IMG/VR virus record: IMGVR_UViG_3300038443_002533
Span: 128,001-192,000 of that record
Strand: one strand, 5' to 3'
Source of the DNA: a virus
Lineage: Duplodnaviria; Caudoviricetes
Length of the DNA: 64,000 nucleotides
The position numbers and the translations under genes were made by a program. A model generated the notes under the pieces. It ran no database searches. It was given only the letters and a program-made list of their open reading frames with translations, and had not been told where the DNA came from. Positions 4,465 to 12,138 of this stretch are shown one piece after another; the stretch's first letter is position 1; every line of letters begins with the position of its first letter.

Positions 4465-5541
4465 ATGCAGCAACCCGATCAATACAAGGCGCTCTTACAA
4501 CGTGTCATGGTGCCGGAAAACCTGCGCCCTAACCGCACCGGTGTCGACGCTTATAAGACCAGCGGTGAATTCATGGTGTTCCCGGATGTCTCAAAAGCGT
4601 TCCCGGCCACTACTCTCAAGAAGCTGGCGTTCATGCCAGTCAAAGGTGAATCGTGTGGTTTCCTGCGCGCTTTGACCAACGCTGCTGACTTCCGTGCCCT
4701 GAACTGCAAAGTGTGGGATCAGAATGCCAACGAACACGGCGTTACGCCGAACGCCTGGCTGTCCAATCCGTTCCGTCTGGGAACCGATGATGTCGGCCCG
4801 GTCTATGGAAAACAATGGCGGGAATGGGACGGTTACAAAGTCCTACCCAATCCGACTAACCGGGAAGAGATCGAGCGTCACAGTGCGATCGTGCAAAAGA
4901 TCAAGGCCGATGGTTGGGCGCTGATCGGACACACTTTCCACGCCGAAGACGGCATTCATGAAGAAGGTTCGATCTCGGGCGAAGTCTGGCACAAGTCGAT
5001 CGACCAGTTAGGCGACTGCGTGCGCCAGATCATCAAAAACCCGGACAGCCGTCGAATTCTGTACCATGGCTGGAATCCAGCGGTGCTGGACCAAGTCGCT
5101 CTGCCGGCTTGCCACTTGCTGTACCAGTTCCTGCCCGACAGCCACACTAAGGAACTGAACATGGTGTTGTACATCCGCAGCAATGATCTCGGTCTCGGGG
5201 CGCCGTTCAACATGGCGGAAGCGGCTCTGTTCATGCACATCGTCGGTCATTTGACCGGTTACAAACCAAAGAAGCTGTCGTACTTCATCGGCGACGCTCA
5301 CGTCTACGTCAACCAGGTCGAATATCTGACCGAACTGCTTTCGAACGAAGCGAAAGAATCACCCGTCCTGAGCATCAGTACACGGGTGCCAAGTTACAGT
5401 GAACTTATTGATCGCGTGGGTGAAAGCAATGCTACGGAAGAAGCGGTCAAGTGGCTGAAGCTAGTGGAGCCGGATGATTTCAAACTCGAAGGTTACGACC
5501 CACACATCCTGTCCACTCCAGTGCCGCAGATGGTCGTTTAA
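4465..5541 (+). CDS. thyA: thymidylate synthase (ThyA type, with insertion)
   Basis: GPVYGKQWR, SRR, LPACH catalytic Cys, YIRSND, PFN, GDAHVY. Confidence 0.95.
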   Translation: MQQPDQYKALLQRVMVPENLRPNRTGVDAYKTSGEFMVFPDVSKAFPATTLKKLAFMPVKGESCGFLRALTNAADFRALNCKVWDQNANEHGVTPNAWLSNPFRLGTDDVGPVYGKQWREWDGYKVLPNPTNREEIERHSAIVQKIKADGWALIGHTFHAEDGIHEEGSISGEVWHKSIDQLGDCVRQIIKNPDSRRILYHGWNPAVLDQVALPACHLLYQFLPDSHTKELNMVLYIRSNDLGLGAPFNMAEAALFMHIVGHLTGYKPKKLSYFIGDAHVYVNQVEYLTELLSNEAKESPVLSISTRVPSYSELIDRVGESNATEEAVKWLKLVEPDDFKLEGYDPHILSTPVPQMVV

Positions 5542-5551
5542 GGAGACAACC

Positions 5552-5767
5552 ATGAACGGTAAAGGTGTGTCGATTGGAATGGCTATGATTATGGCACTCA
5601 GTGTTCCTATTACGCTGATCGTCTCTCATAACCGCGACCAACGCATCGGCAAGTACCTCGCGGAGCATCACTGTAGCCGTATTCGCGAGAATGGTTTCGA
5701 TCCCATGTACGCATGCGGTGATATCGAGATAACGGAAAGCGATATTCTCAAAATCACCACGAACTAA
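5552..5767 (+). CDS. small single-TM protein, HxC/YxC family copy 1
   Basis: Hydrophobic N-terminus, then YLAEHHC...MYACG. Confidence 0.75.
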   Translation: MNGKGVSIGMAMIMALSVPITLIVSHNRDQRIGKYLAEHHCSRIRENGFDPMYACGDIEITESDILKITTN

Positions 5768-5776
5768 TAAGAAAGG

Positions 5777-6079
5777 ATGGGTATGAACTTGAAAGACACA
5801 TACGACCCCGCGGTTGCATTTCGTCGCGATATCGACAACGCCAACGAAAACTCGATCGCCATGGTGGTGATGGTGCTCATTCTGGCGGGGATGGTGGCGC
5901 TGCTGCACTGGTCGAAACAGAAAGGCGAGGAAAACGATCAGAAAATCCTCGCTTATATCAACGCCCACCAGTGCCAGGTCGAGAATCTGACGCCGGGTCA
6001 CCGCGGAGCACGTGCGGTGTATCACTGCACGGAAGGGCAGTTGCTCGACGTCGAGTTGCGTAAGGAAGCCTTGAAATGA
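5777..6079 (+). CDS. small single-TM protein, HxC/YxC family copy 2
   Basis: TM segment, then YINAHQC...VYHCTEG. Confidence 0.75.
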   Translation: MGMNLKDTYDPAVAFRRDIDNANENSIAMVVMVLILAGMVALLHWSKQKGEENDQKILAYINAHQCQVENLTPGHRGARAVYHCTEGQLLDVELRKEALK

Positions 6080-6327
6080 AGGTGATCCGCCAATGGTGGT
6101 ACGAATACCGTGATCTGGTGATTCAATGGATCATCATCGCGGTGTTCGGGGCGGTGGTGTTGGGGTTTTACCAATACCACGTGGAACAAGACCGACCGCT
6201 GGTTGCGTATCTGAACCGTCACAAGTGTCAGGAACTCGGCCGGGTTGGCCAACCTGCTCAATCCGTTTACCAGTGCGACAACGGTTTGCATCTGGAAAAC
6301 GACTTACGCAAGGAAACCGGAACATGA
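6076..6327 (+). CDS. small single-TM protein, HxC/YxC family copy 3
   Basis: TM segment, then YLNRHKC...VYQCDNG; ATGA overlap. Confidence 0.75.
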   Translation: MKVIRQWWYEYRDLVIQWIIIAVFGAVVLGFYQYHVEQDRPLVAYLNRHKCQELGRVGQPAQSVYQCDNGLHLENDLRKETGT

Positions 6328-6575
6328 TCAAGTGGTATAAATCCCTTAGTGAAGGTCGGAGGATTCTGGTGTTATGGGTCGGCATCGTGGTGATGGGTAA
6401 TTTCAACTGGCTGCTTTACGAATTAACCAGTGAGAGAAAAGCCAAAGTGTCGACTTACATCGCTGAGCACAAATGCAAGATCGTTAGCTATGCGGGGCGT
6501 GACGCTGAACCGGTGTACCAGTGTAACACGGGTCTGTTGATCCACAACCTTTTGGTAGACGAGGCACTGCGATGA
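6324..6575 (+). CDS. small single-TM protein, HxC/YxC family copy 4
   Basis: Start at ATG 6324; YIAEHKC...VYQCNTG. Confidence 0.75.
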   Translation: MIKWYKSLSEGRRILVLWVGIVVMGNFNWLLYELTSERKAKVSTYIAEHKCKIVSYAGRDAEPVYQCNTGLLIHNLLVDEALR

Positions 6576-6877
6576 ATATCGTAAAACTGAAGAAGGCGTG
6601 GCTGGATGTTTCGTGGACACCCGCCAGTATCGCGTCCGCACTATTTATCCTGGTGTGGGTGGCGGGGTTTATCCTGCTGATGTTAAATCGAGCGCCCACG
6701 AAAGTGGCGCAGCCAGTCGATCAACAAAAGTTCTGGCATTACATCGAACAACACAGCTGCCGTCGGGTGATCTGGATCACGGTCTGGTTCAAGAACGATC
6801 CACGCTATAATTGCGATAACGGTTGGTGGCGTGAAGAAGAATTGATCGAAGTCGCCAATAGCCGTTACCCACACTAA
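6572..6877 (+). CDS. small single-TM protein, HxC/YxC family copy 5
   Basis: YIEQHSC...RYNCDNG; ATGA overlap. Confidence 0.75.
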   Translation: MNIVKLKKAWLDVSWTPASIASALFILVWVAGFILLMLNRAPTKVAQPVDQQKFWHYIEQHSCRRVIWITVWFKNDPRYNCDNGWWREEELIEVANSRYPH

Positions 6878-6905
6878 GTCACCATTTTTAAACTAGGGAA
6901 TTATA

Positions 6906-7976
6906 ATGCAGTTGAATTTTGATGAAGAGTCGACTCCGGTCGCAGCAATCGACCAGAACGTCGATACCTCCCAACGCGTCAATGCATCGGACAAGCGCAT
7001 GATCAATGCTCTGACCGACGTGAACCAGCTGGTGCCGTTCAAGTACAAGTGGGCGTGGCAGATGTACAACGACAGCTGCGCCAACCACTGGATGCCGCAA
7101 GAATACAAGATGGACACGGACATTCAGCAAATGGCGTCGGGTCAAATCACCGCCGGTGAACGTGCCCGTATCGAGCGTACGGTCAGCGCGCTGGTGCGTA
7201 CGGTGGGCGGTGCTGGCGAACTGGCCATGCACATCTACCGCCACATCACAGCGCCGGAAGCGCGCCAGTACATCCTGCGCCAAGGCTTCGAAGAAGCACT
7301 GGTTCCGCACGCCTACGCCCACATCGTCGAGAAACTCAAGCTGGATGAAAATGTGTTGCTCGATCCGGCCACCCAGCCGGACACGTTCCATGACAAGCAA
7401 CGCTACATGGAACCCACGATCAAGCTCCTGACCGATCCGCTGTTCCGGACGGATTCGACGGAAAACATCCAAGCTTTCATTCGTGAACTCGTCAAGTACA
7501 CGTGCGTCATGAAAGGCATGTTCTCGATCGTTGACTTTACGCGCATGCTGGCCCTCGGCCAGCAGAACAAGATGCCGGATCTGGTCCAGCAATTCTCGCT
7601 GATGTTACGCGACCAACAAGCCCAGATCGAATTCGGTCTGGAAGTCATTCAGGCGATTCGTAACGAGAACACCCATGTTTGGACCGTGGAACTCGTGAAC
7701 GAAATCAAGGCGATCTTCAAGGAAGCGCTGGCGTGGGAAGTGGCACACGCTATCCGCACGGCTCGTCCGGAAGACGCGGAACAGGGTCAGCAGTTCAGCC
7801 ATCTGCTGCAACTGGTGGCCAACCGCATGGCTGGCAAGATCGGGGTCGGGGCGATCTTCCAGCCACAAGCCAATCCGTTCCCGTGGATGGCGCAAGCGCT
7901 CGGCCTGCAAGAGCACAAGCAGATCACGTCGGCGCCAGTCGAGAACAAAGTGTCCACGACGCTGGACTGGGAATAA
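6906..7976 (+). CDS. ribonucleotide reductase beta subunit (NrdB/R2) homolog with degenerate metal site
   Basis: VNQLVPFKYKWAW, NHWMPQE, YRHITAPE, NPFPWM match proteobacterial NrdB. Ligand motifs are altered: EEALVPHAY, MKGMF, RDQQAQ. Confidence 0.9.
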   Translation: MQLNFDEESTPVAAIDQNVDTSQRVNASDKRMINALTDVNQLVPFKYKWAWQMYNDSCANHWMPQEYKMDTDIQQMASGQITAGERARIERTVSALVRTVGGAGELAMHIYRHITAPEARQYILRQGFEEALVPHAYAHIVEKLKLDENVLLDPATQPDTFHDKQRYMEPTIKLLTDPLFRTDSTENIQAFIRELVKYTCVMKGMFSIVDFTRMLALGQQNKMPDLVQQFSLMLRDQQAQIEFGLEVIQAIRNENTHVWTVELVNEIKAIFKEALAWEVAHAIRTARPEDAEQGQQFSHLLQLVANRMAGKIGVGAIFQPQANPFPWMAQALGLQEHKQITSAPVENKVSTTLDWE

Positions 7977-9391: not shown

Positions 9392-10513
9392 ATGCGCTTA
9401 TTTTTCGGGAGTCGAAAAATGCAACAAAACTTTACAGCGTTTGCCAAACCCAAGCTGGGTGTGATGATCGGCCGTTTCTCGTTCATCCACCGTCAGCACG
9501 AACGTACCCTGCAAATCATGGCGGCCGAGAACGACTATATCCTGGTCATGATCGGTTCGGCGAATCGCTGCGTGTCCAAGAAGAACCCGCATGAATTCGC
9601 TGTGCGTGCCGAGATCATGAGCAAGCTGCTGCGCCGGCTCAAACCGGACGGGCAGTTTCGCATCGTGTCGCTCAACGATACCCTCTACAACGAGGAACGG
9701 TGGAAGATGCGGGTGTACGGGGCTGGCGAGCAGTACGCGCAGCGGTGTGGCATCCATCCGGAACGCATCACGCTGTATGGGACCGACAAGGATGAATCGA
9801 CCTACTACCTGAACTCCTTCCCGCAATGGAAGACCAAGGACGTGGGGCGGGTCGAAGACATCGACGCTACGCGGCTGCGTGAGCTGTGGTTCCGTCATTC
9901 GCAGACGGTACCCGGTGGTTTGCGTCTCCAGGACCATCTGGTCCCCGAGATGTTCGACTACCTGAAAGACGGCCACAAGTTCAACGAGGCGTTGCAGAAG
10001 GACTGGTATTACCTCACGGTGACCGAGCCGGATAAGTTCAAGGACTATCCGTATCCTGAAGCCTTGAACGTCATGTGCGGCGATGCAATCGTGGAATGCG
10101 CTGGCCATATCCTGACCGTGACCCGGTCCGGTGATCTCGGCTATGGGCAAGTCGCACTGCCAGGTGGCCACAAGAACAAGAACGAAACCGCGTTCAATGC
10201 GGCGCTTCGGGAACTGTTCGAGGAAACCAACTTGCGTGTGCCGGAGCAGACCATCCGTAACTGCGTGCAACAAACGTACCTGTTCGACCACCCGGGCCGG
10301 ACGCTGTCGTCGGTGCCAAAATCGACGCTCGGCGTTTACGTCAAGATCGAGCCGCGTGACGGCAAGTTTCCCCGTGCCAACGGCGGGGATGATGCCGCGC
10401 ATCCGACGTTACCGAATGGTGGGATCCGCTGGATTCCCAAGTTCGACATCATCAGCGGTAAAGTCAAGATGTGGGACGACCACAATGACATCGTGGATTA
10501 TTTCACGGCGTAA
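9392..10513 (+). CDS. bifunctional NMN adenylyltransferase / Nudix ADP-ribose pyrophosphatase (NadM-Nudix, NatV-like)
   Basis: IGRF..HxxH, GSAN, NP, LND.LY, YYLNSFPQW, IDAT.LR; Nudix box GGHKNKNETAFNAALRELFEETNL. Confidence 0.9.
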   Translation: MRLFFGSRKMQQNFTAFAKPKLGVMIGRFSFIHRQHERTLQIMAAENDYILVMIGSANRCVSKKNPHEFAVRAEIMSKLLRRLKPDGQFRIVSLNDTLYNEERWKMRVYGAGEQYAQRCGIHPERITLYGTDKDESTYYLNSFPQWKTKDVGRVEDIDATRLRELWFRHSQTVPGGLRLQDHLVPEMFDYLKDGHKFNEALQKDWYYLTVTEPDKFKDYPYPEALNVMCGDAIVECAGHILTVTRSGDLGYGQVALPGGHKNKNETAFNAALRELFEETNLRVPEQTIRNCVQQTYLFDHPGRTLSSVPKSTLGVYVKIEPRDGKFPRANGGDDAAHPTLPNGGIRWIPKFDIISGKVKMWDDHNDIVDYFTA

Positions 10514-10584
10514 CGATTAGTGGCAGAAGCCATGAGGGTTGCCGGTCCCTTACCGGTGAAGTAAATAATTGGGAGTCAATTATC

Positions 10585-12138
10585 ATGCTGGAAATCGTAA
10601 AACCCTTCAACATCATCCTCTGGTGCGACACGTACAAGTTTGCTCACTGGGAAGAAATTCCGTTCGGTGTCAAGCAGATGGTGTCGGCGGTCGTGCCGCG
10701 CAAAGCCCTCTACGGCGATGACGGTGAATTCATCACCGACGAAATCGTGACGGCTGGACAAACGTTCATCGCGCACGTTTTCGCGACGGCCCGCCTCGAA
10801 CAGTGGATGATCGACGAAGCAGAAGTCGAAATTACCGAGCAGGGCTACAACTTCAACCGCGAAGGTTGGGAGTACATCCTCCGTACTTACGGCGGCCGTA
10901 TCCCCCTGACCATGTTCGGGGTCGAAGAAGGCCGTGTGGTTAAACCGCAAACGCCGATCCTGATGATCACCAATGAAGACGACGACCGGACCGCGTGGCT
11001 GGTGCCGTACTTCGAGCCGGTGATCCAGTCGGTCTCGTGGTCGATGACCTACACCGCCACCATCTGCCGTTACATGTTCACCGTGATGGCGTACTACGTA
11101 CTGCTGTCCGGCGGCAACATGAAAATGCTGGAATATCTGATCCACAACTTCGGTGATCGTGGAGCAGATGGCCCGGATGAAACCCCCGTGCTCAAAGGCA
11201 TTGCTCACGCGATGCTGTTCCTGGGCAGTGATTGCGGGCGCGCCAATCGCTACATCAAGGTGCTCTACAACACGTCCAAGCCGTACACCAGCTCGGTGGA
11301 AGCTACGGAACACACGACGGTCTGCCTGAATTCGGACGCGGAAACGCGTGACGACTTCGGCGGCATGCAGATGGTCATGCGCCGCCTCAAAGCTGTGGTC
11401 GAACGCAGCAAGCGCGGCATCGGTATCCCTGTGATCTCGACGGTGCCTGATACCTACGACGATGAACGTTTCGTCACGGTGTACGTGGCCGGCTTCAAGG
11501 TGGAAATCGAAAATTCGGGCGGACGTCTCGTCATTCGTCCGGACTCCGGTATCCCCAAGAAGAAACTGCCGCAAGTACTCGGCTGGCTGAAAGATATCTT
11601 CGGCACGACCTTGAACGAAGCTGGCTACCAAGACCTGCCATGGTGCATCGGGGCACTCTACGGTGACGGCATGAACGTTAACACGTTCGAACCTGTCGTG
11701 CGGGCAGCGGTGGTGGACCACAAGTACACCACCAACAACTTCCTGCTCGGCATGGGTGCCGGCATCACCAACGAAGGCTCCCGCGACAAACTGAGCTTCA
11801 GCATGAAAACGATCGCAGAACGCCGCGAATCGTGGAAGCGCGTGCTCAAGGAGCCGAAGTCCGACATGGGTAAGAAGTCGCTGTCGGGTCTGATCCGCAA
11901 TCGTGAAAACGAATACGGCGAACTCGAAACCTTCGACGCCTTGGCTTCGAACAGCTTGTACGAGATGTTCGTGCCGGGCCCGGGACACCGTCGCTGGCTC
12001 GACAAGGGCTATCGCGACTGGCGTCAATCGTTCGATGACACCCGCGCAAATGCGCAGAAAGGCGCCATCGACAAAGCGGCGAATCGTCTGGCCGCTGAAA
12101 AAGCAGTCAATGACGAAGCCGTCGCTGAAGTAGCGTAA
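10585..12138 (+). CDS. nadV: nicotinamide phosphoribosyltransferase (Nampt)
   Basis: DTYKFAH, HNFGDRG, ATEHT, DTYD, VIRPDSG, YGDG, GMG, KKSLSG. Confidence 0.88.
   Translation: MLEIVKPFNIILWCDTYKFAHWEEIPFGVKQMVSAVVPRKALYGDDGEFITDEIVTAGQTFIAHVFATARLEQWMIDEAEVEITEQGYNFNREGWEYILRTYGGRIPLTMFGVEEGRVVKPQTPILMITNEDDDRTAWLVPYFEPVIQSVSWSMTYTATICRYMFTVMAYYVLLSGGNMKMLEYLIHNFGDRGADGPDETPVLKGIAHAMLFLGSDCGRANRYIKVLYNTSKPYTSSVEATEHTTVCLNSDAETRDDFGGMQMVMRRLKAVVERSKRGIGIPVISTVPDTYDDERFVTVYVAGFKVEIENSGGRLVIRPDSGIPKKKLPQVLGWLKDIFGTTLNEAGYQDLPWCIGALYGDGMNVNTFEPVVRAAVVDHKYTTNNFLLGMGAGITNEGSRDKLSFSMKTIAERRESWKRVLKEPKSDMGKKSLSGLIRNRENEYGELETFDALASNSLYEMFVPGPGHRRWLDKGYRDWRQSFDDTRANAQKGAIDKAANRLAAEKAVNDEAVAEVA

Follow-up and report, generated by a model that had tools for sequence, protein, structure and literature searches.

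This locus raises the question of what a phage can do with a subunit of ribonucleotide reductase (RNR) that has lost its metal site. RNR is the sole source of DNA precursors made de novo and a central focus of the conflict between cells and viruses. Phages bring complete RNRs of their own, and poxviruses bring an active orphan R2 subunit. The window, a stretch of 64,000 nucleotides, covers bases 128,001–192,000 of a 272,470-bp viral record (IMG/VR IMGVR_UViG_3300038443_002533) that has direct terminal repeats (DTR) and is rated 100% complete. It encodes an R2 (RNR beta) homolog of 356 amino acids (P0001), and the features on which the analysis depends are as follows, all numbered from the first base of the window, with residues of the phage protein in its own numbering and their equivalents in E. 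coli numbering.

4465–5541, plus strand: ThyA-like thymidylate synthase, the conserved upstream neighbour of the dead R2 (PF00303, E 6e-64)
6895–6899, plus strand: Shine-Dalgarno-like AGGGA, 6 nt 5' of the ATG (direct sequence reading)
6906–7976, plus strand: radical-dead R2 homolog, 356 amino acids (PF00268, NF005550, AlphaFold2/Foldseek, dN/dS)
6975–7103, plus strand: residues 24–66, N-terminal arm and first helix, near-invariant in dead and live R2s (alignments)
7203–7205, plus strand: V100, in the column of ligand Asp84, which is Glu89 in R2c (alignment)
7233–7295, plus strand: residues 110–130, IYRHITAPEARQYILRQGFEE, ending in E130, kept in common with live R2s
7302–7316, plus strand: V133 (His118 equivalent) to Y137 (Tyr122 equivalent, kept) (alignment)
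7512–7514, plus strand: K203, replacing ligand Glu204 (alignment)
7614–7625, plus strand: Q237 and Q240, replacing ligands Glu238 and His241 (alignment)
7944–7946, plus strand: N347, replacing the radical-relay Tyr356 (alignment)
7956–7973, plus strand: C-terminal TTLDWE, the presumed R1-docking tail, with the L-x-W-(D/E) pattern common to the live NrdB subclass

The reading frame is uninterrupted from the ATG at 6906 to the stop codon at 7974–7976, as read from the sequence. The protein matches PF00268 over the entire profile (E 5e-45) and passes the NCBIfam equivalog NF005550 with 323 bits against a cut-off of 309; its live relatives score 667–701 bits. The reading frame and these two matches uphold the first-pass annotation in its call of an intact 356-residue ORF of the R2 family. 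The closest cellular sequences are NrdB proteins of the Oxalobacteraceae (41–44% identity), and the nearest cellular NrdBs are of the Burkholderiales class-Ia type with the ligand order D..E..H..Y..E..E..H. The nearest solved proteins are of the Chlamydia/Saccharopolyspora R2c type, the best being 6y2n and the C. trachomatis R2c structures 1syy, 2ani, and 4d8f (E about 1e-67). The AlphaFold2 model has a mean pLDDT of 85 and a Foldseek TM of 0.81–0.91 to C. trachomatis NrdB, and the protein is predicted to fold as a normal ferritin-like R2. It is unambiguously a homolog of the RNR small subunit, namely of the class I beta (R2) of betaproteobacteria and Chlamydia. With that type of NrdB (NF005550, PRK07209) it has in common the fold, the N-terminal arm, the WMPQE and TAPEARQY..EE motifs, and the L-x-W-acid terminus; however, five ligands and the relay tyrosine are replaced, and its genome holds no partner R1. 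An R2lox identity was considered and rejected (NF006200, 30.5 bits against a cut-off of 194; ligands absent). Since the NF005550 cut-off is passed, PGAP-style pipelines would call the protein an active ribonucleotide-diphosphate reductase subunit beta, and relatives already carry the name of the active subunit beta at JGI.

The residues were assigned by alignments to 1syy, 2ani, 4d8f, and 6y2n and to live betaproteobacterial NrdB. These alignments determined that only one of the six metal ligands survives, the pattern being V, E, V, K, Q, Q. The sole remaining ligand is E130, the equivalent of Glu115. The changes proposed earlier at His118 (V133), Glu204 (K203), Glu238 (Q237), and His241 (Q240), and the loss of the relay tyrosine to asparagine (N347), are each seen in these residue-level alignments. 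There is one correction regarding the segment that contains the first aspartate, FFxTADS, which had been described as deleted. The aspartate is indeed lost and its column is occupied by V100; however, the segment is not deleted but replaced by ALVRTV-GGAG with a single-residue gap. The N-terminal block, W62, Y137, and the terminal LDWE are kept, as had been noted, when the protein is aligned to live NrdB and R2c; W62 is the equivalent of Trp48, and E66, the equivalent of Glu52, is kept as well.

Class I R2 proteins dock into R1 via their C-terminal tail, and the tails of free R2 proteins are disordered. Residues 337–356 are disordered in the AlphaFold2 model of the phage protein. Its last six residues are TTLDWE, versus GALNW(D/E) in live relatives and G-A-L-N/S-W-D/E in the Oxalobacteraceae NrdB tail, so that three of the six terminal residues deviate from the live consensus GALNWD. 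Because the di-metal site is lost and the relay tyrosine is absent, a radical would be neither made nor passed on. With five of six ligands and the relay tyrosine gone, and with no R1 encoded, the protein cannot be a conventional R2.

The first-pass annotation had reported no R1 gene in the window and had asked whether a second nrdB lies elsewhere in the genome. The absence of R1 extends to the complete 272,470-bp genome, in which a PF02867 profile search found no R1 of classes I or II and tblastn queries with NrdA of Collimonas and with two R1s from phages gave nothing better than E 0.08. There is no second R2, since the complete genome has a single PF00268 match. Additionally, neither class III RNR NrdD (PF13597) nor NrdI (PF07972) had a match in the complete genome.

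By its virion proteins, which match phiKZ-type PHROGs and share ~40% identity with their counterparts in Burkholderia phage FLC9 and Ralstonia phages RSF1 and RSL2, the source virus is a phiKZ-related jumbo phage. The closest cultured phages infect Burkholderia and Ralstonia, and the only sequencing run listed as containing the phage DNA is a rhizosphere metagenome, probably the sample of origin; the listing included no RNA run. The virion kinship and the rhizosphere run together point to a soil bacterium from the Burkholderiales as the probable host, and the NrdA and NrdB of that group fall in the subclass of the phage protein, NF005550.

Relatives were sought in 5.8 billion proteins, 1.8 billion representatives, and IMG/VR. 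The search revealed a clade of 13 dead R2 sequences, including the protein from the window, with 38–75% identity. In a quick tree with SH-aLRT support only, the clade is monophyletic (SH-aLRT 95–99) and is separated from all live sequences by long branches, and it evolves several-fold faster than the live R2s. No cultured phage carrying a member of the clade turned up among 50,697 phage records searched by megablast and tblastn; the best matches were intact nrdB genes with ≤44% identity. Read in the order D84, E115, H118, Y122, E204, E238, H241, Y356, the protein from the window and one other (P0002) have the pattern VEVYKQQN, two sequences have DETYKQQK, and one sequence each has KEVYKQQN, DESYKQQK, EETYKQQK, GEMHKQHN, NEMQKVHS, GERYKEHA, DERYKEHA, YESFKLHT, and AERFEQHR. 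E115 is retained in all 13 members and H118 in none, with Arg at that position in the earliest branches. The E204 position is Lys in 12 of the 13, and the Tyr122-equivalent position is Y in nine and F, H, or Q in the rest. Y356 is absent from every member and is replaced by N, K, A, S, T, or R. An Arg or Lys opposite the one carboxylate that survives, together with the neutralisation of the other ligands, seems to make up structurally for the metal that is missing.

The gene is under purifying constraint by several measures. Frames are open in all eight dead-clade genes for which DNA is available. Against the ortholog of 75% identity the gene has a dN/dS of 0.116 (NG86 values), which lies within the range of its neighbours (ThyA-like, 0.067; NMNAT-Nudix, 0.148; NAMPT, 0.084), and residues 24–66, 110–130, and 344–356 pooled give 0.024; these ratios are approximate because dS is about 1.4, near saturation. 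A decaying pseudogene had been named as the outcome that would overturn the earlier interpretation, and with open frames, 13 divergent orthologs, and a dN/dS of 0.12 the gene is not one.

Ligand-poor R2 homologs were also observed outside this clade. An independent lineage (P0147, pattern DEQAAKHA) is found on a 250-kb contig (L096:855-3334), where another PF00268 gene, of 480 amino acids, comes immediately after it and the two make a tandem R2-like pair. Another contig (L098:484-7581) encodes a very degenerate, long R2-like protein of 549 amino acids (P0218, KSVWNGQH) and also has a Cpn60/GroEL-type gene. Many more ligand-less lineages occur among the 150 best representatives, and dead R2 homologs therefore seem to have arisen repeatedly.

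Comparing the 13 members of the dead clade with a non-redundant set of 10 live relatives separates what has been kept from what has been relaxed. Dead and live R2s conserve the same residue at 95 positions; 86 positions are conserved in live R2s but have relaxed in their dead counterparts; at 21, each group conserves a residue of its own; and at one position conservation is new to the dead clade. The shared positions are concentrated in three blocks: the N-terminal arm with the first helix, RV.A.DKR.IN..TDVNQLVPFKYKWAW..YL..C.N.WMP.E; a stretch in residues 110–130, IYR..TAPEARQYLLRQG.EE; and the terminal L..W. Relaxation affects the ligand-bearing helices, the 287–297 loop, and the NFFE..Y relay segment just ahead of the tail. 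The relaxation of the catalytic regions and the retention of the surface and terminal blocks indicate that selection dropped the cofactor and radical transfer. Judged from these alignments, the surface and terminal elements that it kept would have a purpose only where they touch the partners of an RNR. The retention of the Tyr122 equivalent and of W62 and E66 could have structural reasons alone.

The genomes of the relatives suggest how this state was reached. R1 is absent from all four dead-R2 genomes that could be searched in full, namely the genome holding the window (G000) and G002 and G003, which are complete with DTR, and G001, which is 83% complete; no R1 lies within ±10 kb of the dead R2 in two further loci (L002, L003). 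Two related complete jumbo phages (G004, G005) have an intact R2 with R1 immediately adjacent, and these R1s are 62–66% identical to Collimonas NrdA. Between these two states are four phage records with an intact DEHYEEHY R2 and without a detectable R1: G008 (L019; 249 kb, DTR, complete), G010 (L029; complete), G006 (L011; 82% complete), and G007 (L015; 86% complete). These live orphans resemble the orphan R2s of the poxvirus type, but in phages, and two phages with nrdB but no nrdA were described by Dwivedi et al. (PMC3653736). The presence of intact orphan R2s in records that lack R1 argues that reliance on the host R1 preceded the loss of the cofactor. The simplest history that these sequences suggest is from an nrdA-nrdB pair to a live orphan R2 using the host R1, and from there to a dead R2.

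The gene neighbourhood shows the same continuity. ThyA-R2 synteny is seen in six loci (L002, L003, L005, L015, L092, L093), and the ThyA-R2 linkage together with a module of Tmk, small membrane genes, NMNAT-Nudix, NAMPT, NADAR, and DHFR is kept across the dead clade. In G007 the intact R2 is directly downstream of a ThyA 50% identical to that of the window, the same arrangement as in the window, and the linkage is therefore ancestral synteny.

Several features of this neighbourhood were observed in their own right. The ThyA-like protein of the window has 358 amino acids, ~90 residues more than its Pfam span implies (profile 2–257 over residues 6–347), and the ThyA homolog adjoining another R2 homolog (P0121) has 480; both may be insertion-bearing or specialised enzymes of the thymidylate-synthase family. 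Between ThyA and the dead R2, at 5474–6877 on the plus strand, are five tandem overlapping ORFs of about 83–101 amino acids, each with a single hydrophobic helix and, after it, an H-x-C ... Y-x-C-x2-G motif that all five have in common, and weak homologs occupy the same position in G002 and G003. From 9392–12138 onward on the plus strand is an NAD-salvage module with an NMNAT-like/Nudix fusion (373 amino acids) and NAMPT (517 amino acids), which in relatives is followed by NADAR/DUF488 and then DHFR genes; this order is conserved in G000, L002, L003, G002, and G003.

On balance, the protein is probably a non-catalytic beta-prime subunit that engages the host class Ia RNR, a reading drawn from the pattern of conservation and from known RNR systems. 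Binding to the host RNR is the most parsimonious function for a protein that keeps the R1-docking terminus and the most conserved surface blocks of R2, and for a phage without R1 the host class Ia enzyme is the only available partner. That partner would probably belong to a member of the Burkholderiales whose NrdA and NrdB are of the same subclass. The former di-metal site would be filled by side chains, with K203 facing E130 and neutral Val and Gln elsewhere, and K203 is probably a buried counter-charge for E130 in a putative salt bridge. The tail would dock on the host NrdA, or the protein would pair with the host NrdB as a hybrid dimer, or both, and host ribonucleotide reduction would be placed under phage control within a dTTP/dNTP module (Tmk, ThyA, DHFR). 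Once hybrid dimers with the host beta worked, the cofactor of the phage copy would have become dispensable. A predicted complex between the Collimonas NrdA core (residues 255–930, 3-row alignment) and the tail of the phage protein (residues 300–356) scored 0.03 against a mark of 0.32, in a prediction made without controls; this score bears on binding in neither direction. The faster evolution of the clade means that the partner surfaces of the protein may have changed.

Known systems provide precedents for both halves of this proposal. Yeast Rnr4 is a ligand-deficient R2 that cannot hold a cofactor and is the obligate partner of the live Rnr2. It is reportedly the non-catalytic beta-prime of the Rnr2-Rnr4 heterodimer (Huang & Elledge 1997; Sommerhalter et al. 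2004, cited in PMC3161108) and is conserved all the same owing to its place beside the live subunit in the holoenzyme. The phage protein likewise has an R2 fold with an incomplete ligand set that is conserved under selection; however, more ligands are lost in it, Rnr4 and its partners are encoded in one genome whereas the live alpha and beta of the phage protein would be those of the host, and a heterodimer is here proposed by analogy. A more specific form of the proposal is a trans-kingdom Rnr4, in which the dead beta-prime would heterodimerise with the host NrdB and dock on the host NrdA, and the phage would set the amount, the stability, or the dATP feedback of the holoenzyme; this version is tentative. 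The second precedent is the orphan R2 of chordopoxviruses (vaccinia F4), also a viral R2 without a viral R1. Most chordopoxviruses encode R2 only, and this R2 binds the cellular R1 via its C-terminal seven residues to form hybrid complexes (PMC2900304). The natural poxvirus R2s are catalytically intact and the dead form is a laboratory mutant (PMC2900304), whereas in the bacteriophage the dead state is natural and long-conserved, with both the cofactor site and the relay tyrosine absent. No description of a dead phage R2 was found in the literature searched.

The first-pass annotation had interpreted the protein as a dead R2 mimic that inhibits or reprogrammes host dNTP synthesis by binding NrdA or NrdB, or else as a decoy against defences that sense phage RNR. 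Its catalytically dead state is borne out by the lost ligands, the lost relay tyrosine, and the missing R1, and the context leans towards an accessory role rather than pure inhibition. The poxvirus results favour inhibition, as a dead Y300F R2 is dominant negative, though only with its tail present (PMC2900304). The position of the gene in a dNTP-synthesis operon and its descent from orphan R2s that presumably boosted the host RNR favour a supportive role, and it is hard to see why a phage would simply inhibit the enzyme on which its own precursors depend. The balance tips, if only slightly, towards a supportive or hijacking partner and away from a dominant-negative inhibitor.

A different possibility is that the R2 fold now serves a task outside RNR, such as a scaffold for a dNTP complex of ThyA, Tmk, and DHFR, or an anti-defence or decoy function. 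Dead R1 homologs of betaherpesviruses act on host signalling, and other viral RNR subunits have been repurposed, as in the BORF2-APOBEC3B case. The accelerated evolution of the dead clade and the 21 positions at which both groups are conserved but the dead clade has another residue are consistent with a new role, as is the linkage to the ThyA-like gene that is kept throughout the clade. That linkage is, however, also present beside an intact R2 (L015) and so predates the loss of function. The strongest-conserved segments of the dead clade are those common to live R2s, including the R1-docking terminus, and only one position is newly conserved. Recruitment away from RNR is thus considered doubtful, and engagement of the host RNR as a beta-prime subunit is preferred.

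It could also be asked whether the protein still generates a radical in a metal-free manner, like a class Ie R2, for example by delivering a radical on a modified Tyr137 to the host NrdA. Class Ie R2 works without metals (PMC8463856), its NrdF has substituted ligands that include a Lys in the former site as in the phage protein (PMC8463856), and both Tyr137 and Trp62 are kept. In class Ie, however, only three Glu are replaced while the Asp and both His are kept, and NrdI is needed (PMC8463856); class Ie also retains the relay Tyr and the radical Tyr, the latter turned into DOPA, NrdE and NrdI are co-encoded, and the enzyme is active (PMC8463856). The phage protein has lost the Asp, both His, and the relay Tyr, and its genome has no NrdI and no R1, so that the earlier statement that its pattern differs from class Ie holds. 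Additionally, the Tyr122 equivalent is F, H, or Q in four of the 13 dead-clade members, and the relay Tyr356 is absent in all of them. A metal-free radical generator is very unlikely. Last, a functionless remnant of a former nrdAB operon, which the lost R1, the lost catalytic residues, and the long branches of the clade might suggest, is scarcely credible in view of frames that stay intact in eight of eight DNA sequences despite saturated synonymous divergence, a dN/dS of 0.12 for the whole gene and 0.02 for the retained blocks, a gene position and length conserved across 38–75% identity, and replacements as recurrent and specific as the Lys that takes the place of Glu204 in 12 of the 13 members.

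The interpretation of the protein as a beta-prime subunit of the host RNR has consequences beyond this phage. An annotation as an active NrdB leads to an overestimate of the metabolic autonomy of the phage. The series of nrdAB, intact orphan R2, and dead R2 would present the evolution of an enzyme into a pseudoenzyme with its intermediates still visible. The dead R2 would offer a natural means of probing beta-beta and alpha-beta docking in RNR of the Pseudomonas/Burkholderia/Chlamydia type, and tail-based RNR modulators might be modelled on it. If the interpretation is true, a naturally dead, long-conserved orphan R2 would constitute a third viral strategy next to the complete RNRs of phages and the active orphan R2 of poxviruses, namely a pseudo-subunit that controls the host enzyme, and a hybrid holoenzyme would make it the first known viral pseudo-subunit that rewires the host RNR rather than replacing it.
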